A stretch of 10,784 nt of DNA. Origin: Promethearchaeota archaeon (GTDB lineage: Archaea > Asgardarchaeota > Lokiarchaeia > Sigyniarchaeales > SOKP01). The translations under genes were made by a program, and so were the position numbers. Below, piece after piece: positions 1,766 to 10,784 of the stretch. The stretch lies in contig SDNY01000123.1 in the NCBI GenBank assembly GCA_004524535.1, forward strand, positions 1 to 10,784, written 5' to 3'. The notes beneath the pieces were generated by a model, which saw only the letters and a list, made by a program, of their open reading frames with translations, was not told the origin of the DNA and did no database searches. Every line of letters starts with the position of its first letter. Within the stretch, counting starts at the first letter, position 1.

Positions 1766-3208
1766 TTAATGACGCCAAAGATTTAATCCTTCCATCCCGT
1801 ATGCACGAGCTAAAACATAATGATCACGAGATTTTACAAGTTGATCGCGAAGTAATTTATGAAGACGGATTATTTCACTCTTATAATCAGGATTGTTTAT
1901 GAGATTTTCCATTTCATACGGATCTTTTTCAAGATCAAAGAATTGCCATGGTTTACCTCCCCTGCTAGCATCACCCAAAACCGTATACTTATAGCGTTGT
2001 GTACGAAATCCACGCCAATATACTTCATGGTAAGGATAAAATGCACCTACTCTTAAATCGTGTACGAACTCCAGCATCACGCCTTCACGAGGAAGTTTAC
2101 TAATTTCTCCATATATTAAAGGAGTAAGATCCATTCCAGGCTTCTTATCTTTTAGATCTATTCCTGCCAGACCTAGCAATGTTGGATATAGATCTTCAGC
2201 GCATACGGTGTCATTTATCACTTTACCCCTTACTTTAGAACGCCTTGGATCGTAGATTATTAGTGGTATGCCACAAGATTCTTCAAAAGGACCATCCTTT
2301 AAAATATTGATAATATTATGAGCCCCTCCCATCTCACCATGATCGGCCATAAAAATAACAATCGTGTCTTCTTTCAATCCAGTTTCTTTTAGAAAATCCC
2401 GCATGCGTCCCACATTTATATCAAGATTTTCGACCATGGCATAATATTGCTTAAGTCTGTATATCGAATCCTTCTTATTAAAATTAGGGTGATCCTCTGT
2501 AATTTTTAATCCCGGTACTTTATAATTATCTTGAATGGCATAATTAGGGGGAAATATAATTGATTTTTTCCGCCATTTTTCAGCTAAATCAGCAGGAGCA
2601 AATTTATAACCAAAAGGAAAATGAGGTGGTTCAACAGATAATATACAGAGGAAAGGTTTCTCAGAATTAACTTGCTTCCCTAAATAGTCAATCGCAAGAT
2701 CAAATAGACCATCTGTCTGATATCTATCTATCTTTTTAGGTGTGGGATCATCATCTTCAAAATAATACCAATCAAAAAAATCATTAGCAATTTCAAATCC
2801 TAACCATTTCTGCCATCGTCCCTGATGTTCAGGTGGGACAGGGGTTTTATTTGCTTTCTTATTAGAATGTTTAGGTAAAAGGGCGTGCCCTCCATATAGA
2901 TGCCACTTTCCAATATAAATAGTATGATATCCCGCTTCATTAAATTCATCAGCTAATGTGCGTTCAGCTGGAGACATCCGCCATTCAATAGCTGGAACAA
3001 AACGAGAATGTGCATATTCACCAGTTTGCAAAGTAAAGCGAAAAGGGACACAAATTGGATATGTAGAGCATGCATTTGTAAAGCGAACTCCTTCTTTTGC
3101 CAAGTGATCAATATTTGGTGTTGTGAGATTTGGATCTCCATAAATGCTTAACACATGACGCCTTAGTTGATCACTTAAAATTATAAGAATATTTGGTTTT
3201 TTACTCAT
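1766..3208 (-). CDS. Formylglycine-dependent (Cys-type) sulfatase
   Basis: KPNILIILSDQ, TPNIDHLAKEGVRF.NA, CVPFR (CxPxR) then LQTG, GY.T..IGKWHL, PPHFP, ADHGEM.G.H, FDLEKDPYEMENL. Start placed at ATG 3208 (MSKKPN); the ORF track extends to 3253. Confidence 0.92.
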   Translation of the reverse strand: MSKKPNILIILSDQLRRHVLSIYGDPNLTTPNIDHLAKEGVRFTNACSTYPICVPFRFTLQTGEYAHSRFVPAIEWRMSPAERTLADEFNEAGYHTIYIGKWHLYGGHALLPKHSNKKANKTPVPPEHQGRWQKWLGFEIANDFFDWYYFEDDDPTPKKIDRYQTDGLFDLAIDYLGKQVNSEKPFLCILSVEPPHFPFGYKFAPADLAEKWRKKSIIFPPNYAIQDNYKVPGLKITEDHPNFNKKDSIYRLKQYYAMVENLDINVGRMRDFLKETGLKEDTIVIFMADHGEMGGAHNIINILKDGPFEESCGIPLIIYDPRRSKVRGKVINDTVCAEDLYPTLLGLAGIDLKDKKPGMDLTPLIYGEISKLPREGVMLEFVHDLRVGAFYPYHEVYWRGFRTQRYKYTVLGDASRGGKPWQFFDLEKDPYEMENLINNPDYKSEIIRLHKLLRDQLVKSRDHYVLARAYGMEGLNLWRH

Positions 3209-3350
3209 TTTCATTCCATTTTCTAATTCTATAGTATTAAAAAGGTAGCTCAAGGAATAAAATCTTATGAAAATTTGAAAAAGTTTTATAATATTAATAA
3301 TAAACCTTAGTTTATTTTAGTATAACCAAATTGATGTTAAGATAAATAAC

Positions 3351-3361
3351 AAAAAAAAAAA
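3351..3361 (-). terminator. Oligo-T terminator for the small Cys-rich gene
   Basis: T11 tract on the minus strand about 15 nt after the stop codon at 3376. Confidence 0.5.
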
Positions 3362-3375
3362 GAAGTTAGATTTTA

Positions 3376-3534
3376 TTATTTCTTTTTCATTTCCTCTCCG
3401 CAGCAAGAAAAACCTTGGTCTGAACAACTACCTTCCCCCTCACCGCAGCCGCAAGACTTAGAAACTGTTATTTCAAGCCCACAATCTTCGCAAATAAGAA
3501 TATCTCCTTTTTTTAACTCATTACAACCAGTCAT
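3376..3534 (-). CDS. 52-aa Cys-rich desulforedoxin-like metal-binding protein (absent from ORF track)
   Basis: Manual translation MTGCNELKKGDILICEDCGLEITVSKSCGCGEGEGSCSDQGFSCCGEEMKKK followed by TAA TAA. It has the GD...CxxCG....CCG..M desulforedoxin pattern, a GGTGA Shine-Dalgarno-like motif 6 nt before the ATG, a TATA-like element at 3581-3588 and a T11 tract downstream. Confidence 0.85.
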   Translation of the reverse strand: MTGCNELKKGDILICEDCGLEITVSKSCGCGEGEGSCSDQGFSCCGEEMKKK

Positions 3535-3550
3535 TTAGATTCACCATTCA

Positions 3551-3565
3551 AAACATATTATGTTT
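3551..3565. promoter_or_regulatory. 7-1-7 palindrome, candidate operator of the small Cys-rich gene
   Basis: AAACATA-T-TATGTTT lies between the TATA-like element (3581-3588) and the GGTGA motif (3541-3545). Confidence 0.45.
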
Positions 3566-3616
3566 CTAGTTTTTTTAAGATTTTATAAGCATTTTTCTTA
3601 TAGATTATAAAGTAGT

Positions 3617-5065
3617 TCATTTCCAAATATTCACATCACGTCTTTCCAAATCATTAAATATTTTTTCAGTTTTAATATCTGACTTAAATGCTACGGGAGT
3701 ATTTACAATATACAAATCTTTTAAAGAGTTAAGGTTTAATAATGATTGAGGAAGGTTCTTTATAGGATTATTGTTTAACCATAATGCTTTTAATGAAGTT
3801 AAGTGTTCTAAATTTTCGGGTAGGACACTCAATTGGTTATTACTTAGATCCAAGATTTCAAGAGATTCAAAATTATATGAAAACTCGGAAAATCGCTTTA
3901 ATTGATTAAAACTTAAGCCTAAAACTCTCAATGATGTCATTTCATTCATATTTTTTGGTAATTTCATTAACTGATTTCCCCATATTGATAGAATCTCTAA
4001 CATTTTTAATTTTAAAATTGATTCTGGTAAAACTTGAATAATATTATGATTTATATCCAATTCTTTGAGGTTTATTAGGTTCCCAATCTCATTTGGAACG
4101 TTAATTAAATAATTATCACTCAAATCTAATTTTTCAAGATTTATCAACTCGCCGATTGATTCTGGAAGTGAATTTAATCTATTTTCAGTCATGTAGAGCT
4201 CCTTTAAGCTTCCAAGGTTTCCTATCGAGAAGGGTACTAATTTTAATCCACATCTATTAAATCCTAAGGAGACTATTCTATCCTTTTCACACATGAATCC
4301 CATTTGAGTATCTTTTTTAATAACCTCAACGGGACTTATTTCATTGATGAAAAATATCTTTGATTCATCTAAATTGAACTTAATTATATCCAGAAGGGAA
4401 TTCATGTCATTTCCATCAAGAATATCATCATATTTCTTTTTAAATTTCATCTCTATTTGCTCAAAGAACTTTTCCATTAAGAGCTCAATTTCCTCACTAT
4501 TAAAATATTCAAGATAATTTTTTTGAATTAAATATTGAGAAACGCTCCTAGATCCACTCATGAGCCTTTCCACAATTTCATCTTTAAAAACCCTTTTTGC
4601 ATTAGGATCTCCAATATCCGTTAATTTTTTGAGAAGTGGAAAAGCTAAATTACTATGAAGTAGCCGTGTATCATATAAATTTTCAGCCCAAGCTTGCAAA
4701 TTAGAACAATTCCCCCAGAATTCAATTTCAGGCTCTATAAGCTCAATATTTGCATTCTTTTCCAAAGAATGATCGAGTTTTTCGCTGACATCATCGATTG
4801 AATTAACCTTATCGAAATCTTTAAATTCTCCTATTGGAATATCTATTAACAAATATTTACATTGTAGAAATTTTTTATTTTTTACGTAAATTACCGTTTT
4901 ATCTCTCTCTAATTTCAAGGTGATATAATCATTAATCTTAAATTCTTTAATTTCCTTCTTTATAGGTTTGATATCTTTAATTGAAAATTTTATCTTCTTT
5001 CCGCATCTATAACAATAATTATAAGTAGTTTTATTCCTTGTTCCACAATTAGGACAAAAAAGCAT
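3617..5065 (-). CDS. Zinc-ribbon + conserved N-terminal domain + leucine-rich repeat protein
   Basis: N-terminal CPNCG...CYRCG zinc ribbon; about 8-9 C-terminal 23-aa LRRs (e.g. LKELYMTENRLNSLPESIGELIN, LEKLDLSDNYLINVPNEIGNLIN). The middle segment INDYITLKLE..KTVIYV....F.QCKYL...EFWGNCSNLQAW.E..YDTRLLHSNLAFPLLKKL resembles, from recall, a family expanded in Lokiarchaeia. Confidence 0.88.
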   Translation of the reverse strand: MLFCPNCGTRNKTTYNYCYRCGKKIKFSIKDIKPIKKEIKEFKINDYITLKLERDKTVIYVKNKKFLQCKYLLIDIPIGEFKDFDKVNSIDDVSEKLDHSLEKNANIELIEPEIEFWGNCSNLQAWAENLYDTRLLHSNLAFPLLKKLTDIGDPNAKRVFKDEIVERLMSGSRSVSQYLIQKNYLEYFNSEEIELLMEKFFEQIEMKFKKKYDDILDGNDMNSLLDIIKFNLDESKIFFINEISPVEVIKKDTQMGFMCEKDRIVSLGFNRCGLKLVPFSIGNLGSLKELYMTENRLNSLPESIGELINLEKLDLSDNYLINVPNEIGNLINLKELDINHNIIQVLPESILKLKMLEILSIWGNQLMKLPKNMNEMTSLRVLGLSFNQLKRFSEFSYNFESLEILDLSNNQLSVLPENLEHLTSLKALWLNNNPIKNLPQSLLNLNSLKDLYIVNTPVAFKSDIKTEKIFNDLERRDVNIWK

Positions 5066-5138
5066 TTGACAATAGAAATAGCTATGATTAAATTTAGTTC
5101 TCTTTAGTTTATAAAAGGCTATACCTATTTATGCTTTA

Positions 5139-5160
5139 TTTCTTTTCATTATAAGCAAAT
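5139..5160 (+). repeat. 22-bp direct repeat, left copy flanking the AbrB-PIN module
   Basis: TTTCTTTTCATTATAAGCAAAT; 21/22 identical to 6003-6024. Confidence 0.8.
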
Positions 5161-5191
5161 TAATTTTAAAAAGTTTCAAATAATATCATTA

Positions 5192-5219
5192 TTTCCGAAA
5201 AAGTTTAAATATTCGGAAA
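5192..5219 (+). promoter_or_regulatory. TA promoter: TATA box bracketed by an 8-bp inverted repeat (probable autorepression operator)
   Basis: TTTCCGAA-aaagTTTAAATA-TTCGGAAA; the TATA element (5204-5211) is about 23-30 nt before the ATG at 5234. Confidence 0.7.
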
Positions 5220-5233
5220 ACTATGGGTTTTTT

Positions 5234-5494
5234 ATGACAATTGATGAAGAAACAAAAGTAGGAAAAAAAGGAGAAATATTACCAAAAAAGCCATTAAGAG
5301 ATTTCTCAGGGATAAGTCCAGGAGATAAAGTCTTAATTGAAGCTCAACCTGGTAGATTGATAATTAATAAAATTTATTCAGTTGAGGAGCTTTTAGAAAT
5401 GCCAATAATCTCAGAAGGAACTGCTGAAAGCGTTGAAAAAGATATTGAAAAGGAAGTAAAATTACAAGAAAAACTGACAAATGATGAACATTAA
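5234..5494 (+). CDS. AbrB/MazE/SpoVT-family antitoxin
   Basis: TKVGKKGEILPKKPLRDFSGISPGDKVLIEAQPGRLIINK fits the swapped-hairpin AbrB pattern; acidic C-terminus; overlaps the downstream PIN gene. Confidence 0.85.
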   Translation: MTIDEETKVGKKGEILPKKPLRDFSGISPGDKVLIEAQPGRLIINKIYSVEELLEMPIISEGTAESVEKDIEKEVKLQEKLTNDEH

Positions 5495-5978
5495 ACCTCT
5501 CATTTTAGATACCACCTATATTTTACCCCTATTCGGCATCAAAATAATAGATCTAGTCGACTTTAAAAAGATCTCTAATCAGCTATGGACGCATGGTTTA
5601 AAAGGATATCATTTATATTTACCATCAATTTGCTTAATTGAAGTTATGTTTAAATTAAATAGTGAGTATCGGAAAAAAAATGATATAAATATATTAAATC
5701 GTTATTCAATCGCGCTTCCCTCTATTATCTCATCGAAATCAATAGAACTTTTTAATCCGCTCCTAAATCCTGAAGCTAACAGAATTTCAATTAGTATAAG
5801 ACATGCTGGTCATAAAGATGTTCTGGATTGCTTGATTGGAGCAAGTGCTGCTGCTTTAAAAGGCATATTATTGTCAGAAGATATCGAATTGAGTAAAATT
5901 ATGAAAGCATTACCTGAAACTAAAGATTTTCCTGTTTGGTTTTGGAAAGATCTCGTTCAAAACGAATTTAATAAATGA
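5481..5978 (+). CDS. PIN-domain (VapC-like) toxin
   Basis: ILDTTY, SICLIEV, DVLDCLIGASA and LLSED supply the acidic PIN active-site residues; coupled to the AbrB gene. Start is 5481 or 5484. Confidence 0.85.
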   Translation: MMNIKPLILDTTYILPLFGIKIIDLVDFKKISNQLWTHGLKGYHLYLPSICLIEVMFKLNSEYRKKNDINILNRYSIALPSIISSKSIELFNPLLNPEANRISISIRHAGHKDVLDCLIGASAAALKGILLSEDIELSKIMKALPETKDFPVWFWKDLVQNEFNK

Positions 5979-6002
5979 GTTATTTGAATTAAGATTTCCC
6001 TC

Positions 6003-6024
6003 TTTCTTTTCATTATACGCAAAT
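6003..6024 (+). repeat. 22-bp direct repeat, right copy flanking the AbrB-PIN module
   Basis: TTTCTTTTCATTATACGCAAAT; 21/22 identical to 5139-5160. Confidence 0.8.
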
Positions 6025-6061
6025 ATAAAAAAAATATTAGAAAAATAGTATTAAAAAAATT

Positions 6062-6196
6062 TTATTATTGTAATTTATCTTTCATTTCCATATAGAAATC
6101 CAGTGAATCAGGTTTTCTTAAAGCACCTCGATTAGCTACAGTCATACCATGGATGATTTTTATAAAAACAATTTCAACTTTTTTGTTGCTAAAAGT
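6062..6196 (-). repeat. Diverged copy (135 bp) of the 3' end of the acetoacetate-CoA ligase gene
   Basis: Aligns without gaps to 8841-8975; translates TFSNKKVEIVFIKIIHGMTVANRGALRKPDSLDFYMEMKDKLQ** versus gene TFSNKKVEIAVTKIIHGMSVANRGALRNPDSLDFYMEMKDKLQQ*. Confidence 0.95.
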
Positions 6197-6266
6197 TTAA
6201 TGAATTTATAATTGATGAAATTAGAAAAAAAATATTAAGTAGGATTTATATTTATATGATAGAAAA

Positions 6267-6548
6267 ATGGTAGAGAAAATAACAATTAAACTTCCAGCTG
6301 ACCTTCTTGAATTAACCGGTTTGAGTTCGGAAAACCTGGAGGAAAAAAGTCTTCTGATATGGATATTAGAAATTTATTCACAAGGGAAGATAACTCTTTC
6401 TAAGGCGGCCAACCTTTTAAATATGAAGATTGATGTATTTTTATCAGAATTTCATAAACGCCATCTTAGACATATGGGAGGTCCTGAATCCATAGAAGAA
6501 GTTCAAGAGGAGTTTGATGTTGTAAAACAATTAAAAGAAGATAAATAA
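6267..6548 (+). CDS. UPF0175-family putative antitoxin
   Basis: LEIYSQGKITLSKAANLLNM....F...L pattern; ends 5 nt before a PIN gene. Confidence 0.8.
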   Translation: MVEKITIKLPADLLELTGLSSENLEEKSLLIWILEIYSQGKITLSKAANLLNMKIDVFLSEFHKRHLRHMGGPESIEEVQEEFDVVKQLKEDK

Positions 6549-6553
6549 TTTTC

Positions 6554-7006
6554 ATGATTATCCTTGATAATAGCGTATTAAGCGTTTTTACTCGTCTTAA
6601 ACTACTTTCTCAATTGGAGGAATTAATTCCCGAGGCCATAATTTCTGAAGATGTTTTAAATGAGTACTCAGAACATTGGCAGAAAAAAATCCCAAAATGG
6701 ATTAAAATTATAGAACCTAAAGAAAATATTCAAGTTAAATCTTCTCCAATATCCTTAAGTTTAGCAGATCTAACCTTAATAAAGTTAGCTTTAGAATATA
6801 AGATCCCTATTGCTTCTGATGACAAACCTTTACGCCTATTTGCTAAGAAACTAGGGATTTCTATTACGGGGTCTCTTGGGATATTAAAAATTTTATATCA
6901 AAATAGAATTATTAAAACGAGGAAGGAGTATTTAAAATATTTAGATTCTCTTCAGAAAGATATCTACATTTCTGATAAGCTCATGAAGTGGGCTTTAGAA
7001 GAATAA
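6554..7006 (+). CDS. PIN-domain protein (DUF3368-like), putative toxin
   Basis: IILDNSVL, SEDVLNE, LSLAD...I.LA, ASDDKPLRLFAKKLGISITGSLGIL; usual partner of UPF0175 genes. Confidence 0.85.
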   Translation: MIILDNSVLSVFTRLKLLSQLEELIPEAIISEDVLNEYSEHWQKKIPKWIKIIEPKENIQVKSSPISLSLADLTLIKLALEYKIPIASDDKPLRLFAKKLGISITGSLGILKILYQNRIIKTRKEYLKYLDSLQKDIYISDKLMKWALEE

Positions 7007-7036
7007 TGAAAGAGAAATAGAAAAAATATAAAAATT

Positions 7037-7057
7037 TTATTGAAGCTTATCCTTCAT
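7037..7057 (-). repeat. Short copy (21 bp) of the ligase gene 3' end
   Basis: ATG AAG GAT AAG CTT CAA TAA = MKDKLQ*; 20/21 identical to 8115-8135 and followed by a T-rich tract on the minus strand. Confidence 0.75.
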
Positions 7058-7080
7058 AAAAAAAATAAAAAATTAACATA

Positions 7081-7122
7081 TTAAGTTAGCTTATCCTTCA
7101 TTTCCATGTAAAAATCAATAGA
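7081..7122 (-). repeat. Diverged copy (42 bp) of the ligase gene 3' end
   Basis: TCT ATT GAT TTT TAC ATG GAA ATG AAG GAT AAG CTA ACT TAA = SIDFYMEMKDKLT*, with several synonymous differences from the gene. Confidence 0.85.
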
Positions 7123-7347
7123 TTATAAAAATTAAGAAAAATTTTTTTAGTATTTCCCTTTCAAGAACCCTCCATATTAATTTCGATTATATTTTGAGAA
7201 GATATTATTCAAAAAAGAATAACTGAAAATACTGATACCCATAAAAGATAATTATGTATGCCATTTCTTAGAAGGTTTCATCATAATTCTCGATGAAGAA
7301 ATTCAAAAACTTAAAGAGGTGTCCTAAACATTACAAAACTGATAACT

Positions 7348-8094
7348 ATGGATTTTTGGAAATATTACGATGTTACGCACAAGGAGCATCTCATATGCAA
7401 TCCTATGAGCATCGAAAAATTAAACGAGCTTATCACCCTCTTGGCGTTAAAATCAGGTTCAAAAGTGTTAGAAATCGCCACCGGTAAAGGAGAATTTCTG
7501 ATTCGGCTCGTCGAAAAGTATAATGTATCCGCAATAGGCGTTGATATCTCGCCCTACCATCTCGGTGATGCTAAAAGAAAAGCGAAAGAGCGTGTCCCGA
7601 ATGCCGATTTAAAACTAATTGAAATGGACGGTGCCAATTATAAGCCCGATACACCAGAGAGCTTTGACCTCACATGTTGTTTAGGTGCCAGTTGGATTTA
7701 TAACGGAAATGAGGGTACACTTAAGTATTTGATGAGCCAAACAAAGCGCAACGGACTCGTCGTTGTGGGAGAACCATTTTGGATCAGCAAGCCACCAAAA
7801 GAGTATTTCGCTCTCTCGGAAATAGAATATGAGATGTTCAGCAACCACGCTGGAAACGTGCAAATTGGAGAGAATCTCGGTCTAAAACTGCTTTACACTT
7901 TTGTGGGCACCCATGATGATTGGGATAGATATCTCGGGCTCCAATGGTATGCAATGGACAAATATGCTCAGTTATATCCGGAAGATCCTGACCTTCCCGA
8001 GTTTTTGGCCAAATTAAATAAAGAGAAAAAATTATATCTGAAATGGGAGCGGGAGGCATTTGGGTGGGCTATTTATGTGTTTAGAAAGCCGTAA
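7348..8094 (+). CDS. Class I SAM-dependent methyltransferase
   Basis: Motif I VLEIATGKGE, motif II GVDIS, EMDG, SFDLTCCLGASWI, GLVVVGEPFW; visibly more GC-rich than its neighbours. Substrate unknown. Confidence 0.9.
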   Translation: MDFWKYYDVTHKEHLICNPMSIEKLNELITLLALKSGSKVLEIATGKGEFLIRLVEKYNVSAIGVDISPYHLGDAKRKAKERVPNADLKLIEMDGANYKPDTPESFDLTCCLGASWIYNGNEGTLKYLMSQTKRNGLVVVGEPFWISKPPKEYFALSEIEYEMFSNHAGNVQIGENLGLKLLYTFVGTHDDWDRYLGLQWYAMDKYAQLYPEDPDLPEFLAKLNKEKKLYLKWEREAFGWAIYVFRKP

Positions 8095-8114
8095 ATATAA
8101 TAAGAAAAAAAAAA

Positions 8115-8228
8115 TTATTGAAGCTTGTCCTTCATTTCCATATAGAAATCCAGTGAATCAGGGTTTCCTAAAGCACCTCGATTGGCAACAGACATTCCAT
8201 GGAGGATTTTTATGAGCGCAATTTCCAC
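8115..8228 (-). repeat. Diverged copy (114 bp) of the ligase gene 3' end
   Basis: Translates VEIALIKILHGMSVANRGALGNPDSLDFYMEMKDKLQ*; followed by a T10 tract (8105-8114) on the minus strand. Confidence 0.95.
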
Positions 8229-8246
8229 AAGGATGAATATAAAGAA

Positions 8247-8534
8247 TTATAACTGAAGACGCTGTTTTGAATGGAGAATCGCTACTATTTTAATTAACTC
8301 GTTATTTTCATCAACTTGATAAAGAATTCTATAATCTTTAAAAAGAAGTCTTCTAATATTATGCTGCTCTAATTGCGGAATAATTCCATACATTTTAGGA
8401 AATTCTTTAAGAGATTCTATTTTAATATAAAAATCTTCTAAGAAATGTTCTGCATATTGTATAGAATTTTCTGAGTAATAATTATATATGTTCTTTAACT
8501 GCCGCTTGGCTTTTTCTGAGATTCTGATTTCCAT
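8247..8534 (-). CDS. RelE/ParE-family type II toxin
   Basis: IRISEKAKRQLKNIYNY..ENS..YA...IESLKEFPKMYG...RRLLFKDYRILYQVD...IKIVAILHSKQ. Confidence 0.9.
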   Translation of the reverse strand: MEIRISEKAKRQLKNIYNYYSENSIQYAEHFLEDFYIKIESLKEFPKMYGIIPQLEQHNIRRLLFKDYRILYQVDENNELIKIVAILHSKQRLQL

Positions 8535-8722
8535 TTTCCAGACAAACTTTTCATTTCTTCAAGAGAATAAGATCTTCCTTGCTTAAAATCTTCTAAACCT
8601 TCTAATACCTGTTTTTTTACATATAATAAATCAATTAATTCCTCAATTTCCTCAGAAGGCGTATCCTCAGGCAAGTCTTTAATGAGTTTGATAATGTCTT
8701 CTTTAATTAGCTTTAATGTCAT
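8495..8722 (-). CDS. Cognate antitoxin of the RelE/ParE toxin
   Basis: Small protein KEDIIKLIKDLPED...LYVKKQVLEGLEDFKQGRSYSLEEMK..KW directly upstream of, and overlapping by 40 bp, the toxin. Confidence 0.8.
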   Translation of the reverse strand: MTLKLIKEDIIKLIKDLPEDTPSEEIEELIDLLYVKKQVLEGLEDFKQGRSYSLEEMKSLSGKWKSESQKKPSGS

Positions 8723-8822
8723 ACTCTTCTCTATTACTATAAAATTATTAAATTTAATATATTTATGGTTGAAGAGTCTTATAATTTTTACTTATTAATT
8801 CATAGTCTTTACTCTATATATT

Positions 8823-8839
8823 AAAAAAAAATAAAAAAA
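8823..8839 (-). terminator. T-rich terminator of the ligase gene
   Basis: Two T runs on the minus strand immediately after the TAA at 8841-8843. Confidence 0.5.
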
Positions 8840-8840
8840 T

Positions 8841-10784
8841 TTATTGCTGAAGTTTATCTTTCATTTCCATATAGAAATCCAGTGAATCAGGGTTTCTTAA
8901 AGCACCTCGATTGGCAACAGACATTCCGTGAATGATTTTAGTAACCGCAATTTCGACCTTTTTGTTGCTGAACGTATAAGGAATACCGTCTGGTGGAGCT
9001 TGAAAGATTAACTTAGGTACATGTCGTGGAGAGGTTTTTTCTCTTAAAATTTGTCTTATTTTCACTTTTAAATCATCATTTAACTCATACTCTTCATTCA
9101 GAAGCACAAACATTACGATTCTGATATCACCTTGAAATTTTTGCCCGATTACCAATGAATCAGAGACCTCAGGAAGTTGTTCTACCACATTATAAATCTC
9201 TGCTGTCCCAATTCGGACGCCACTTGGTTTTAAAACCGCATCTGATCTTCCCCAAAAAGTAATACCTCCTGTGTCACTATGAATGACAATATAATCACCA
9301 TGTCTCCATATCTTTTTACCCTTAGCTTTAAAATAATCAAAATAAGCTGCTTTATATTTTGTCATGTTGTCATCATCTTCCCAGAAATATATAGGCATTG
9401 AAGGTGCGGGAGCTTCACATACAAGCTCGCCTTGTTCATTCTCTACAATATCTCCGTTATCATTATATGATTCAACCTTCATAGCTAAAGCACGTCCCTG
9501 TAATTCACCAGAATATACAGGAAGTATTGGGATTGCACCAGCAAAACAACCATTAATATCCGTACCCCCGCTGATCGAATTAAAGAATAAATCTTTCTTA
9601 ATTTCTCGGTACACGTATTCAAATCCTTCCGGAGAAAGGGTAGATGCTGTTTGCGAGATTTCTCTTAATGCACTTAAGTCATATTTCTCAGCAGGTTTCA
9701 CACCAAGACCCATTAAGTAATGGATATACGCAGCGCTTGTCCCAAATATAGAGATTTTGTGTTTTTCAATCAATTCAAAAAATCTCAATGGTTCTGGGTA
9801 AAGTGGATTCCCATCATATAAGAATATCGTTGCGCCCACTGCGAGGCCACTGATAAGCCAGTTCCACATTTTGGCTGGTATAAGAAAGACTTATACCATC
9901 ATCCATGAGGGCGCGGTGATATAATTCAGTACATCGCTTCTCTTACAATCAGTGGAAAGAATAAGTTCCTTTAAATGATTGATTAACACTCCACCAGCGC
10001 TCTGTACCATACACTTCGGTTTTCCTGTCGTTCCCGAGGAGAACATTACATAAATAGGATGGTCAAAGGGTAATTGTACAAATTCAAGTGGAGGATCTTC
10101 ATCTTTAGAAATAAAGTCTTCCCAATTCACGGCTTTAGGAATACCACTGACATCACATTTACTATCAGATACATAAGTAACAACAACTACCTTTTCTATA
10201 GAAGGGATAGCTTCCACAACAGCCTTTGCATTCTCTCGAATATCAAAAATCTTATCTCTATAGAAATATCCATCAACGGTAAACAGCACTTTGGGTTCAA
10301 TTTGACCAAATCTATCTATGACTGCGCTTGGTTGGAGCTCTGCTCCACAAGATGCCCAAGTTGCTCCAATTGCTGCACCTGCAAGCATCGCAACTGGAGT
10401 TTCGATTAAGTTAGGAATATAAGATACAACTATATCACCTACCTTAACTCCAATTTCTTTGAGAGATTTTGCTAGACGAGCAACTGTCTTATTTAATTCA
10501 GCGTAGGTCATCTGCTTTGATACTTTTGTTTCACCTTGAAAATCAAAAGCTAACTTGTCGTCTTTATATTTCAGTAAATTCTCAGCAAAATTTAATAATG
10601 CTCCGGGAAACCACTTAGTTCCAGGAAAAACATTCAAATCCTCGACTACCTTATCATATTTTTTTGAGGCAATAATTCCAGCGAAATCCCACATTGCTCC
10701 CCAAAAATCCGGAATTTTTTCAACAGACCACCTATATAGCTCTTTACCACCAGTAATATTTGCATCATAATTTTTATTAGCAAA
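8841..10784 (-). CDS. Acetoacetate-CoA ligase (acetoacetyl-CoA synthetase), 5'-truncated by the window edge and interrupted by a 30-nt in-frame insert at 9870-9899
   Basis: Frame is open from 10784 (FANKNYD...ELYRWSVEKIPDFWGAMWDF). Motifs: WFPGALLNFAENLL, P-loop FSSGTTGKPKCMVQSAGG, SWM|MWNWLISGL, SISGGTDINGCF, WRHGDY, GRSDAVLKPSGVRIGTAEIY, SPRHVP, KKVEIAV. The ORF track's 9891-10694 and 8841-9869 ORFs are in the same frame. Confidence 0.93.
9870..9899 (-). other. Candidate 30-nt bulge-helix-bulge mRNA intron
   Basis: mRNA CCUCA-UGGA-[UG^A]-UGGUAUAAG-UCUUU-CUUAUACCA-GCCA-[AA^A]-UGUGG: two 3-nt bulges, a 4-nt central helix (3 Watson-Crick pairs plus one A.G), a 9-bp inner stem and an in-frame UAA. 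Excision gives UCA UGG AUG AUG UGG AAC UGG (SWMMWNW). Confidence 0.75.

Follow-up and report, generated by a model that had tools for sequence, protein, structure and literature searches.

The displaced-tail architecture is best known from the mobile ORFs of fungal mitochondria (PMC3630166), where a homing-endonuclease element comes with a replacement gene end and the old end is displaced. PMC6083498 gives a precedent for an intron associated with a free-standing endonuclease. In our favoured reading the locus described here has the mobile ORF architecture, but it lies on an archaeal chromosome. Integrons also have small, toxin-antitoxin-rich cassettes; however, they possess an integrase and folding repeats, and neither was found for the present array. 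We analysed a window of 10,784 nt from a Promethearchaeota archaeon (all coordinates refer to this window), together with related Asgard loci, in which we observed an array of displaced gene tails, its variability among relatives, foreign and native tails, endonuclease genes or relics at the site, and a recombination breakpoint at a mini-intron-like insert in the gene. We favour, with some reservation, repeated homology-anchored insertions behind the gene, probably triggered by an endonuclease, with the mobile ORF architecture, as the explanation.

The gene concerned encodes an acetoacetate-CoA ligase on the minus strand and is present as two in-frame ORFs (10784..9891 and 9869..8841) that are split by a 30-nt insert with an in-frame TAA. 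The N-terminal ORF (9891..10784), which runs off the window end, matched positions 28-320 of the NCBIfam model PRK03584/TIGR01217 and the Pfam families ACAS_N and AMP-binding, and the C-terminal ORF (8841..9869) matched model positions 320-654. A previous sequence-only reading had named the end of this gene as the source of the repeats, which holds, with the correction that the gene is not a single open frame in the window. The current gene tail consists of the last ~150 nt (8841-8990; repeat family D1). Its last ~20 nt and the downstream sequence differ from those of the closest relative, L001; the present gene end was nearest to that of L021, which has the same RelE cassette, tied at 30/37 with L015 and L005.

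Using nhmmer on both strands, with a profile made from the 250-nt ends of related ligase genes, we identified four copies of the ligase 3' end, each truncated at its 5' side and all on the minus strand, in gene sense. These were copy A (8093-8228; E 1.9e-32, profile positions 97-232, stop codon 8115-8117 followed by a T-run), copy B (7074-7123; E 2.2e-5 and alignment, about 42 nt of gene tail, stop codon 7081-7083), copy C (7022-7057; 21 nt of gene tail at 7037-7057 plus a T-rich stretch) and copy D (6042-6205; E 2.7e-35, profile positions 70-233, stop codons 6062-6067). Copy C was weak in the profile search (E 0.07), yet it is identical in 21/21 positions to ATGAAGGATAAGCTTCAATAA, the 21 nt that terminate the ligase gene of L001, and none of 200 shuffles gave two matches at three or fewer mismatches. 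It aligns with the gene end of L015, at the head of a cassette common to both. Every copy is closed by TAA and T-rich sequence, and the 3' limit stays the same throughout, about 15-30 nt past the stop codon, whereas the 5' limits vary (profile positions 97, 168, 190 and 70 for A to D). The four displaced ends that had been read by eye, with their orientation, T-rich ends and variable reach, were thereby borne out.

The cargo between these copies was checked with Pfam and NCBIfam. Cassette 1 (8247..8722, minus strand) holds a RelE/ParE toxin (8247-8534, minus; Pfam ParE_toxin 1.5e-17, TIGR02385 RelE_StbE) and a small ORF (8495-8722, minus) without a family match, a putative antitoxin by position and by eye. 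Cassette 2 (7348..8094, plus strand) encodes a SAM-dependent methyltransferase (Pfam Methyltransf_25 and others) and is 95.6% identical to L001 11682-12535. Cassette 3 (6267..7006, plus strand) encodes a UPF0175 protein (6267-6548, plus; Pfam, above cutoff) and a DUF3368 protein (6554-7006, plus; Pfam 26.3 bits, below the 27.3 cutoff); calling the latter PIN-like is our own reading, with no family match behind it. Cassette 4 (5139..6024) contains a PIN protein (5481-5978; Pfam PIN) and a small ORF (5234-5494) without a family match, read as AbrB from position and by eye. A 22-nt direct repeat with one mismatch (5139-5160 and 6003-6024), which 0/200 shuffles reproduced, encloses this cassette. 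Thus, of the cargo previously named, RelE, the methyltransferase, UPF0175 and one PIN protein were confirmed by family matches, whereas the antitoxin and AbrB found no family and the protein named as the other PIN matched DUF3368 below the cutoff. The conserved right-hand flank of the variable region is a leucine-rich-repeat protein gene (3617..5065, minus; Pfam LRR), which lies 3-7.5 kb downstream of the ligase gene in L001, L004, L007, L027 and L035.

Among the 43 related Asgard loci that extend at least 1 kb past the ligase gene, 10 have extra tail copies, one to four each. The gene strand carries all 16 extra copies found in the window and relatives at E <= 1, of which 14 reach the inclusion threshold, and the copies in relatives likewise have a constant 3' limit and variable 5' limits. 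The cargo is different in each case: eIF1A, KatG with Fur, a pair of ADH genes, a cold-shock gene and methyltransferases occur, as do toxin-antitoxin pairs, and one island of 8.7 kb encodes an AAA_15 ATPase together with a DUF6602 protein. An identical cargo order in all relatives, which would have spoken against the previous reading, was not seen, as number and order vary. The window's cassettes occur at other positions in other genomes. The RelE cassette is collinear with gene end plus cassette in L021 and stands behind a tail copy in L020, the methyltransferase (84% identity) lies directly behind the ligase gene in L026, and window positions 6061-7058 are 78% identical to L015 11005-12009, where the gene end and a displaced tail enclose cassette 3. 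These pairs support that a tail end and its following cargo behave as a recurring unit across genomes. The proposal that repeated insertions each added a replacement end with cargo and pushed the old end outward is supported. All data are metagenome-assembled contigs, and the trees carry no support values. The contigs of relatives often break at or near the ligase gene; those of L034 and L046 are interrupted within it, and five contigs stop less than 700 nt past it.

An occupied and an empty site could be compared directly. L046 9295-10544 is collinear with L029 10785-12031, which is the gene tail and flank of L029, at 94.2% identity, and in L046 an 8.7-kb island lies between the ligase stop codon and the displaced native tail. 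The 3' part of the present L046 gene is closer to L018 (94.4%) than to L029 (89.9%), whereas for the displaced copy identity is 92.9% to the L029 gene tail and 77.1% to its own gene (32 synonymous and 7 non-synonymous differences). Over all its 241 nt this copy is native-like and not element-borne.

In three relatives (L010, L028 and L046) a LAGLIDADG homing-endonuclease gene is convergent with the ligase stop codon. L010 and L028 have a 369-aa ORF, 8 nt from the ligase stop to stop and 87% identical to each other, and L046 has a 637-aa ORF at the same position (Pfam LAGLIDADG_3, 1e-6). All 21 members of the endonuclease family matched PF14528 at E <= 0.01, and the PDB matches listed for an AlphaFold model (pLDDT 78.3) were only LAGLIDADG enzymes, namely bI3 maturase, I-Tsp061I, I-DmoI, I-SceI and PI-PfuI. 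In all three loci the intact gene heads an insert closed by a displaced tail. In L032, L044, L018, L039 and L024 a C-terminal relic of the endonuclease directly follows the ligase stop codon, and DNA-level relics were detected in L035 and weakly in L012. Genes and relics together occupy the site in 8-10 of 48 loci (relics alone in 5-7), and these 5-7 have no displaced tail within the available sequence. Neither gene nor relic was present in seven of the ten array-bearing loci. Searches of the window by tblastn, and by profile and phmmer on six-frame translations, also gave none, so the trigger of its four events is extrapolated from relatives. In the two loci with near-identical endonucleases the displaced tails begin at different profile positions (32 and 67); no common insertion point is defined.

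The 30-nt insert in the window's ligase gene (9870..9899, minus strand, in the register predicted by the bulge-helix-bulge motif) lies at the WMM|WNW site and is a candidate bulge-helix-bulge mini-intron. Of the 41 loci that span the site, 6 have this insert; L001 does not. In the predicted fold 96.9% of cells are paired, compared to 33-47% with the partners slid, and cuts after the second nucleotide of each 3-nt bulge, the rule in PMC2738675, would excise exactly 30 nt. The 4-bp helix has an A.G mismatch, and no compensatory changes were found in the motif among the six sequences. The fold suggests that the insert may be removed by RNA splicing.

The mini-intron site is also a recombination breakpoint. 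L010 and L028 are 70-76% identical upstream of it, and from 11 nt before it they agree in 45-49 of 50 positions per window over about 450 nt. Their 3' halves are 91.8% identical (rank 1 of 41) and their 5' halves 77.4% (rank 22), and the first 250 nt past the stop codon are 97% identical, so the common segment begins at the intron site, about 1 kb upstream of the gene end. Between our window and L001, 36 of 120 differences fall within 200 nt after the site. From -15 to +64, 12 of 19 differences are common to all three other aligned intron-bearing alleles, and in nine of these twelve the base has a frequency of 3-24% in intron-less alleles. An intact endonuclease gene accompanies 2/5 intron-bearing and 0/34 intron-less loci (p 0.013), or 3/6 vs 0/34 (p 0.002) if L034 and L046 are halves of one gene. 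The intron was weakly associated with endonuclease traces of any kind (p 0.049) and with arrays (p 0.07).

The endonuclease genes and relics, together with the mini-intron-like insert, point to break-initiated, homology-anchored recombination rather than to a cassette recombinase. DNA from related genomes would recombine in, with the gene-side junction within the ligase gene. The incoming piece would carry its own gene end, with stop codon and oligo-T run, and cargo behind it, so that the ligase stays whole, and the resident end would be left farther downstream as a 5'-truncated, unexpressed fragment. The free-standing LAGLIDADG enzymes probably cut intron-less ligase alleles at the mini-intron site. 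Repair from the invading allele would then copy the intron, the 3' half of the gene, the new tail, the endonuclease gene and the cargo, and the far end may be joined illegitimately or at a displaced tail copy. The endonuclease-free cassettes of the window (toxin-antitoxin pairs, methyltransferase) could be relics of such events or hitch-hikers on the same homologous recombination. At a second gene, the acyl-CoA dehydrogenase of L016, cargo and an 89-nt copy of the gene's own tail were found with no endonuclease nearby, which indicates that the insertion mode can work without an endonuclease in cis.

The copies were once working gene ends, as differences in them are synonymous in excess of the share of 0.207 expected for random point changes. 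Synonymous and non-synonymous counts included 28/10, 17/6, 18/10 and, for the codon differences between copy D and the gene, 11/8 (p 0.0004); p values ranged from 3e-12 to 4e-4, and copy A gave 6/6 (p 0.02). Copies A and D are mosaics, with centres 95-97% and edges about 75-80% identical to the gene; the 5' edge is the most diverged, and the 3' end differs as well. In copy A the central 59 nt match the window's gene at 57/59, the 5' 40 nt at 32/40, and the last ~37 nt with the T-run match the present gene end of L001 at 32/37; in copy D the central block matches the gene at 56/59 and the 5' part no allele better than 54/67. Later gene conversion, or repeated excision and re-entry, is therefore needed beyond the simple model, and the repeated tails would continue to recombine among themselves. 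Such mosaics are also what is expected if, in a Campbell-type cycle without an endonuclease, cassettes excise as circles between tail copies and re-enter the gene tail of the same or another genome by single homologous crossovers at varying points. This model of the previous reading is a possible but not a likely explanation. It would also fit the tail copies behind the UPF0175/DUF3368 cassette in the window and L015, which have near-equal 5' limits (profile 70 vs 64) and 3' parts of different allele types, and the PIN cassette within its 22-nt repeat and the L016 case, both inserts between direct repeats without an endonuclease. However, the 21 nt of copy C and 42 nt of copy B are short for homologous recombination, the displaced copy of the L046/L029 pair is native-like over its whole length, and both the origin of the first duplication and the endonucleases at the site would be left unexplained.

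It is rather improbable that a site-specific recombinase encoded elsewhere, with its core at the very gene end, inserted integrase-less cassettes, as in integrons, Xer-dependent modules or tandem accretion of integrative elements. The last ~20 nt of the ligase gene are present in all 16 extra copies, which share one end point, the shortest being just those 21 nt, and the cassettes are small (1-2 genes) and toxin-antitoxin-rich, as such insertion would have it. Against this, the duplicated lengths spread from 21 to about 270 nt and crossover points vary, as the mosaics differ and the L010/L028 segment starts far upstream of the gene end. No integrase or transposase was found by Pfam among the 15 window ORFs, as had been noted from the sequence, and no tyrosine or serine recombinase among the 178 ORFs downstream of the ligase gene in relatives, where the lone integrase/transposase-type match was a DDE transposase in L037. 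The repeats lack hairpin potential; no attC-like fold was found in the window (single-strand repeat z-scores +1.31, -0.68, -0.25 and +0.63). The integron likeness previously drawn thus fails on the defining features.

Strain variants with one cassette each, falsely chained by the assembler through their common tail sequence, are a very unlikely source of the array. The long copies barely differ in their central 59-68 nt, which could mislead a short-k assembler, and contig breaks near the ligase gene are frequent; but the junctions between cargo and truncated tails are unique, which is not expected in single-tail variants, arrays occur in nine other independent assemblies, and the joins right of the gene tail, copy A and copy C are collinear with other genomes. 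Assembly could nevertheless have affected the order of the cassettes, but not the presence of the copies. Whole-gene tandem duplicates decayed from the 5' side, which the serial copies in one orientation might recall, are hardly credible and already contradicted, as the gene measures roughly 2 kb and no copy is longer than about 270 nt, the copies are separated by unrelated genes, 5' limits are scattered, copies are nearer to alleles of other species than to their own gene (as in L046), and true paralogues in the same loci (ADH, small GTPases) are homologous over the whole ORF.

Under the favoured reading of repeated homology-anchored insertions, the window would be the record of four such events and one intergenic insertion, and Lokiarchaeial genomes have an insertion hot spot in the interval between the ligase and the leucine-rich-repeat gene.

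By its ORFs, their family matches and the related loci, the window belongs to a Lokiarchaeial (Promethearchaeota) genome. The acetoacetate-CoA ligase gene lies on the minus strand of the window as two in-frame ORFs (10784..9891 and 9869..8841) and is followed, in the direction of the gene, by a small ORF with a RelE/ParE toxin gene, a methyltransferase gene, a UPF0175/DUF3368 pair, and a small ORF with the gene of a PIN protein. Beyond the PIN cassette come an LRR protein gene, a sulfatase gene, a cold-shock gene and an eIF1A gene. Based on a repeat search and alignment, the last ~150 nt of the ligase gene were found again at 8104-8255 and 6054-6205, with shorter pieces at ~7037-7122. An nhmmer search with a 250-nt tail profile, made from the gene ends of related loci, placed four copies on the gene strand: copy A at 8093-8228 (E 1.9e-32), copy B at 7074-7123 (E 2.2e-5), copy C at 7022-7057 (E 0.07, the weakest) and copy D at 6042-6205 (E 2.7e-35). 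Copy C contains an exact 21-mer that is identical to the end of the gene in the closest related locus, L001, and no shuffled sequence reproduced this match. Every window copy is closed by TAA and a T-run. The four ligase tails in gene orientation, with stop codon and T-rich end, that had been described by the sequence-only reading were thus recovered by repeat search, alignment and profile search.

The central block of copy A is identical to the gene at 57 of 59 positions and that of copy D at 56 of 59, whereas the 5' parts agree at only 32/40 and about 75%, respectively, and the 3' ends of the two copies differ. Such near-identical centres with diverged edges suggest that the repeats still convert one another, or that cassettes have left and re-entered. 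The window contained no tRNA gene in a tRNA scan and no Rfam family at the gathering threshold, so the insertion site is not a tRNA-type attachment site. A 22-nt direct repeat (1 mismatch; 0/200 shuffles) at 5139-5160 and 6003-6024 brackets the cassette of the small ORF and the PIN gene, and one of its copies sits in the upstream region of the LRR gene; insertion of this cassette duplicated sequence outside the tail.

With the ligase C-terminal ORF as query, 80 loci were retrieved; L001 to L049 are Asgard contigs with 59-97% protein identity, one of which is labelled as a bacterium, and all sequences are metagenome-assembled contigs. The gene tail was detected in 48 loci, the window counted, and 43 of them extend at least 1 kb downstream. 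One to four extra tail copies were present in 10/43 at the nhmmer inclusion threshold. At E <= 1 there were 16 extra copies, all on the gene strand (16/16) and all extending to the stop codon and about 15-30 nt past it, with 5' starts scattered between profile positions 2 and 190.

The DNA between the ligase and the conserved flank was different in nearly every genome, with genes for catalase, KatG with Fur, ADH pairs, ABC transporters, toxin-antitoxin pairs, methyltransferases, cold-shock proteins and eIF1A, which bears out the variable cargo that the sequence-only reading had expected behind the gene. L001 is 92% identical to the window across the gene at the nucleotide level; besides the ligase it shares the LRR gene and the far flank with the window, and the methyltransferase block at 95.6%. 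Where the window has its toxin-antitoxin cassettes, L001 has genes for a Usp protein and a histidine kinase and two uncharacterised genes, and no extra tail copy was found there. The sulfatase gene (window 1766-3350) is also absent from L001, in which the counterparts of window 3351-5118 and 1-1765 (15904-17671 and 17718-19446) are only 46 nt apart; from this alignment, the sulfatase region appears to be a separate 1.6-kb insertion or deletion.

Individual cassettes of the window recur elsewhere, together with matching gene ends. The RelE cassette is contiguous with the gene end in L021, and in L020 the same cassette stands with a tail copy behind two ADH genes. The methyltransferase is contiguous with the gene end in L026, and in L015 the gene end, the UPF0175/DUF3368 cassette and a displaced tail align with window 7058..6061, from copy C to copy D. 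The ligase genes of the window and L001 differ mainly in the last ~20 nt and downstream; copy A bears the L001-type gene end with its T-run (32/37), and the current gene end of the window is nearest to that of L021, which has the same cassette, in a tie at 30/37 with L015 and L005. Each tail end therefore belongs with the cargo 3' of it, and the unit of a gene tail plus downstream cargo, also proposed from the sequence, held in the related loci and in the 3' end of copy A.

Some further features of these loci were observed. The eIF1A gene, ~8 kb from the ligase in the window, is directly behind it in L002 (11314-11703) and L033 (11340-11729), and in L002 it sits between the ligase and a displaced tail copy, indicating that housekeeping-type genes too can become cargo. 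ORFs of the Antibiotic_NAT family (aminoglycoside 3-N-acetyltransferases; Pfam E 1e-87 to 1e-89) lie in the variable region of two Lokiarchaeial MAGs, immediately past the RelE/ParE cassette (L021:5040-5876, L029:13598-14446). The L015 contig is labelled as a Nanopelagicaceae bacterium and is probably mis-binned, since it carries a Lokiarchaeial ligase (89% identity), the cassette of the window and a displaced tail.

When translated in the reading frame of the ligase, the extra copies retain most of the conserved protein sequence. Synonymous and non-synonymous differences between copies and their own genes numbered 32/7, 28/10, 17/6, 18/10 and 13/7, far above the synonymous fraction of 0.207 expected from random changes; in the window they were 11/8 for copy D (p 0.0004) and 6/6 for copy A (p 0.02). 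As the nearest allele to the copy, the own gene ranked only 12 (L046), 29 (L028), 37 (L015) and 42 (L027) of 48. The copies appear, from these comparisons, to be once-functional gene ends, often from other alleles. In L046 an 8.7-kb island separates the ligase stop codon from the displaced copy; this copy and its flank are collinear with the gene tail and flank of L029 (94.2% over 1250 nt), and the gene part now in place is nearer L018 (94.4%) than L029 (89.9%). The displaced copy is therefore the native end, and the working end arrived with the island. A foreign C-terminus in the gene, with the native one displaced downstream, was thus found in the L046/L029 pair and with window copy A, together with the synonymous excess. 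Contig breaks are frequent at the locus: in one MAG the end of L034 and the start of L046 both fall within the ligase and overlap by 279 nt (97.5% identity), and the contigs of L011, L030, L041, L043 and L047 stop less than 700 nt past it, which would fit strain-level variation.

Integrons have an IntI-type tyrosine recombinase beside the array, and their attC sites are imperfect inverted repeats able to fold in single-stranded form. In integrons, as in attC clusters that have no integrase, small cassettes follow one another, each with a repeated element at its bounds, and many are toxin-antitoxin pairs. The ligase array resembles them in its serial small cassettes, many toxin-antitoxin, between repeats, but the repeats are direct copies of a coding end and the cassettes are in both orientations. 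Pfam searches gave no integrase, recombinase or transposase among 15 ORFs of the window, in agreement with the earlier statement that neither integrase nor transposase is visible there, and no integrase or recombinase among 178 ORFs downstream of the ligase in relatives (91 + 87), where the sole transposase match was DDE_Tnp_1 in L037. Single-strand DNA folds of the repeats were no better than those of shuffles (z +1.31, -0.68, -0.25 and +0.63). The proposed likeness to an integron hence stands for the serial small cassettes between repeats, and fails for the integrase and for the hairpin potential of the repeats. ICESt1/CIME at fda, SCC at rlmH and tycheposons rely on a recombinase of the tyrosine or serine type and on a fixed att core. 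In accretion at gene 3' ends and in tRNA islands the gene is regenerated at each insertion and partial copies mark the old junctions, recombinase-less elements included. The ligase locus is like these in its repeated 3'-end insertions, regenerated gene and partial copies at junctions, and unlike them in that the searched ORFs gave no recombinase and the junctions appear to vary in position.

The two ligase ORFs cover positions 28-320 and 320-654 of the family model, and nothing is therefore missing from the ligase. Between them lies a 30-nt in-frame insert (window 9870-9899, minus strand) that holds a TAA and splits the ligase at WMM|WNW. It was found in 6/41 loci covering the site, with 80-87% conservation: besides the window in L010 (~5109-5138), L028 (~9974-10003), L032, L034 and L045; L001 is without it. 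The predicted fold has an exon-exon helix, a 4-bp helix with one A.G, two 3-nt bulges and a 9-bp inner hairpin, and no compensatory changes were seen among the six sequences. Cuts after the second nucleotide of each bulge would excise exactly 30 nt and restore WMMWNW, and the rule known from crenarchaeal cbf5 introns, in the accessible part of that report, is likewise a cut between the second and third bulge nucleotides (PMC2738675). The insert fits bulge-helix-bulge (BHB) intron geometry and is a candidate intron with predicted splicing; EndA homologues are given for 58/60 Asgard genomes in the available portion of a preprint (10.64898/2026.10.13.758758). Alternatively, the gene could be split, with the insert supplying the stop and start codons. 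Two points make this less likely: the non-coding 3' half of the insert hardly varies across six species whose genes differ by 20-25%, and the insert obeys the BHB rule. A spliceosome-like intron was rejected: the insert begins GTATAAGT and has a CAG, and removal from GT to AG would take out 22 nt and break the frame.

At some of the related loci an endonuclease gene stands directly at the insertion site. A 369-aa ORF is present in L010 (6170-7279) and L028 (11035-12144), on the minus strand and convergent with the ligase, with 8 nt from stop to stop, and a 637-aa LAGLIDADG ORF of a separate lineage occupies the same position in L046 (586-2499, minus strand), also convergent with the ligase. 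PF14528 was matched by 21/21 aligned members of the 369-aa family at E <= 0.01 (best 2e-8); the member P0001 itself scored 18.7 bits, under the cutoff of 22.5. Against the PDB, the family profile found the I-DmoI/I-CreI chimera (E 0.004) and also I-Tsp061I, and P0001 as a single sequence gave only insignificant matches (E 0.27). The predicted model of the 369-aa protein (pLDDT 78.3) had 67 Foldseek matches in the PDB at E <= 0.001, and each of the matches listed is a LAGLIDADG enzyme. WLGWLFAEA and ILGYYDGDG are the two motifs seen on translation, and D293, G294, D295 and G296 are invariant in the family. Based on the family-profile matches and the fold matches of the model, the 369-aa ORF is identified as a LAGLIDADG protein with a predicted two-domain fold and acidic residues in each of its motifs. 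Of its 99 relatives most are Asgard proteins, and some are named homing endonucleases by their sources; one of the 99, P0004, appears from its locus-tag prefix to be a second copy in the MAG of L010.

In all three loci with an intact gene (L010, L028 and L046), a displaced tail closes an insert that begins with the endonuclease gene. C-terminal relics of either endonuclease gene, convergent with the ligase, were found directly past its stop codon in L018, L024, L032, L039 and L044, and relics at the DNA level also in L035 and, weakly, in L012. No endonuclease gene or relic was detected in the window by tblastn, the family profile or phmmer on six-frame fragments. The cargo behind the endonuclease genes looks defence-like: in L028 (12379-15513, minus strand) it is a 1044-aa protein that bears a Walker A motif and matches no Pfam family, and in L046 (2678-8804) it includes three uncharacterised ORFs, a DUF6602 protein and an ATPase (AAA_15/AAA_21) with DUF3696.

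The intron site also marks a breakpoint in identity between alleles. Upstream of it, L010 and L028 are 70-76% identical; from 11 nt before the site, 45-49 of every 50 positions agree for about 450 nt. Identity is 91.8% across the 3' half and reaches 97% in the first 250 nt on the endonuclease side. The two are mutual nearest alleles in the 3' half only (rank 1), and rank 22 and 9 in the 5' half. The window is 93-97% identical to L001 save around the site, with 36/120 differences within 200 nt after it. Between -15 and +64, 12/19 differing sites carry in the window the bases common to all three other intron-bearing alleles aligned, and 9/12 of these bases are rare (3-24%) in intron-less alleles. 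We read these patterns as putative co-conversion tracts flanking the mini-intron. Intron-bearing alleles were scattered in gene trees, which were without support values. An intact endonuclease gene was present in 2/5 intron-bearing and 0/34 intron-less loci (p 0.013), or in 3/6 and 0/34 when L034 and L046 were counted as one gene (p 0.002). Associations of the intron with any endonuclease relic (p 0.049) and with arrays (p 0.07) were both weak.

Tentatively, we consider the locus a possible composite selfish system, in which a free-standing LAGLIDADG endonuclease and a 30-nt BHB mini-intron that shields its own allele would home into intron-less ligase alleles, draw in the DNA behind the gene and build arrays of defence, toxin-antitoxin and stress genes marked by displaced tails. 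The gene-side junction is homologous and lies within the ligase, at most as far upstream as the intron site; the one on the far side would be illegitimate or lie in a tail copy, which would account for 5' limits being so scattered. An endonuclease break is the probable trigger and, if the process resembles collaborative homing as treated in the accessible part of PMC6083498, may fall where intron-less alleles would receive the intron. Taken as a whole, the arrangement corresponds to the mobile-ORF (mORF) architecture of fungal mitochondria, as far as the available part of its description goes (PMC3630166). There, in Allomyces macrogynus atp6 and Glomus sp. atp6, atp9, cox2 and nad3, an endonuclease ORF, mostly LAGLIDADG, moves into a conserved gene near its 3' end and brings along a foreign C-terminal segment, so that the gene stays whole; the native C-terminus is left downstream and matches a close relative, and the inserted copy differs mostly synonymously (PMC3630166, in part). 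The L046/L029 pair, L010 and L028 show all those features. Unlike the organellar mORFs, which are fused in frame, the ligase system is on an archaeal chromosome and its endonuclease gene is convergent and free-standing; its inserts carry extra cargo, from 1-2 genes to 8.7 kb (toxin-antitoxin, ATPases, stress genes), as many as four displaced tails follow one another, and most arrays, that of the window included, are without an endonuclease gene.

Similarly, the free-standing F-CphI adjoins the intron-containing psbA of cyanophage S-PM2 (PMC6083498, accessible part). In both systems a free-standing endonuclease gene stands beside a gene whose intron, a candidate one in the ligase, has no endonuclease of its own; here the mini-intron is in all loci with an intact endonuclease, L046 if taken as one gene with L034, and the breakpoint is at the intron site. 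The psbA intron is group I, whereas that of the ligase is a candidate 30-nt archaeal BHB intron, and the endonuclease here is a LAGLIDADG protein that may cut at the intron site. Phage T4 SegF, SegG and MobE are free-standing endonucleases of intronless homing (PMC6083498 and PMC2790892, both as available in part); as is proposed for the ligase, an optional endonuclease gene between conserved genes cuts the neighbour where it is absent and repair co-converts the flanks, but these are phage genomes, without displaced gene ends or cargo arrays in those descriptions. The short pre-mRNA BHB intron of crenarchaeal cbf5 has a relaxed motif and was gained and lost among relatives (PMC2738675, in part). 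The ligase insert, a candidate intron, is like it in being short, in an archaeal protein-coding gene, of relaxed BHB type and gained or lost among relatives, and unlike it in its Asgard phylum, its gene and its tie to a homing endonuclease and putative co-conversion tracts.

Several findings speak against an endonuclease trigger for the window: the window and 7/10 arrays are without an endonuclease gene, the 22-nt repeat that bounds the PIN cassette is not tail sequence, and an acyl-CoA dehydrogenase in L016 has a copy of its own tail with no endonuclease nearby. The last case came from a scan of 620 ORF tails in 48 loci for other genes trailed by their own 3' ends, a search suggested by the sequence-only reading, in which most cases were tandem paralogues and L016 was the one further tail-only case. 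In L016 (14598-18278) a 645-aa secreted repeat protein is encoded behind the dehydrogenase on the opposite strand, and past it stands the tail copy of the dehydrogenase gene, 89 nt long and complete with stop codon and T-run. The first model for the array, homologous cycling of circles made of gene tail and cargo that enter by single crossover, is a live rival. A site-specific recombinase acting in trans is less likely. All copies share the last ~20 nt, as for a fixed crossover core, whereas mosaic copies and scattered 5' limits point to exchange at more than one position. Assembly chimerism, by which the arrays would be artefacts of joined strain variants, is unlikely, and so is descent of the copies from decayed whole-gene duplicates of the ligase, a reading that was dropped on comparison of the related loci.

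In the literature searched, with subscription journals thinly covered, we found neither this architecture described for archaea nor LAGLIDADG genes reported behind Lokiarchaeial genes. If the composite selfish system is true, it would be a break-driven, recombinase-free platform for gene acquisition, and would include the first mobile pre-mRNA BHB intron and the first one outside Crenarchaeota, of which no report was found in that same literature. Genes split by mini-introns will be mis-annotated as pseudogenes or as two genes. The link between endonuclease and mini-intron allows two questions to be tested at the bench: do archaeal BHB introns move by homing, and are defence and toxin-antitoxin islands built by selfish endonucleases? 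Little is understood of how the genomes of Asgard archaea, the closest known relatives of eukaryotes, acquire foreign genes. The ligase locus offers a repeatable, integrase-free way of entry, in which recombination is anchored in a conserved gene and the incomer supplies the replacement end, and the displaced ends form a dated stack of past events that can be searched for in any genome.
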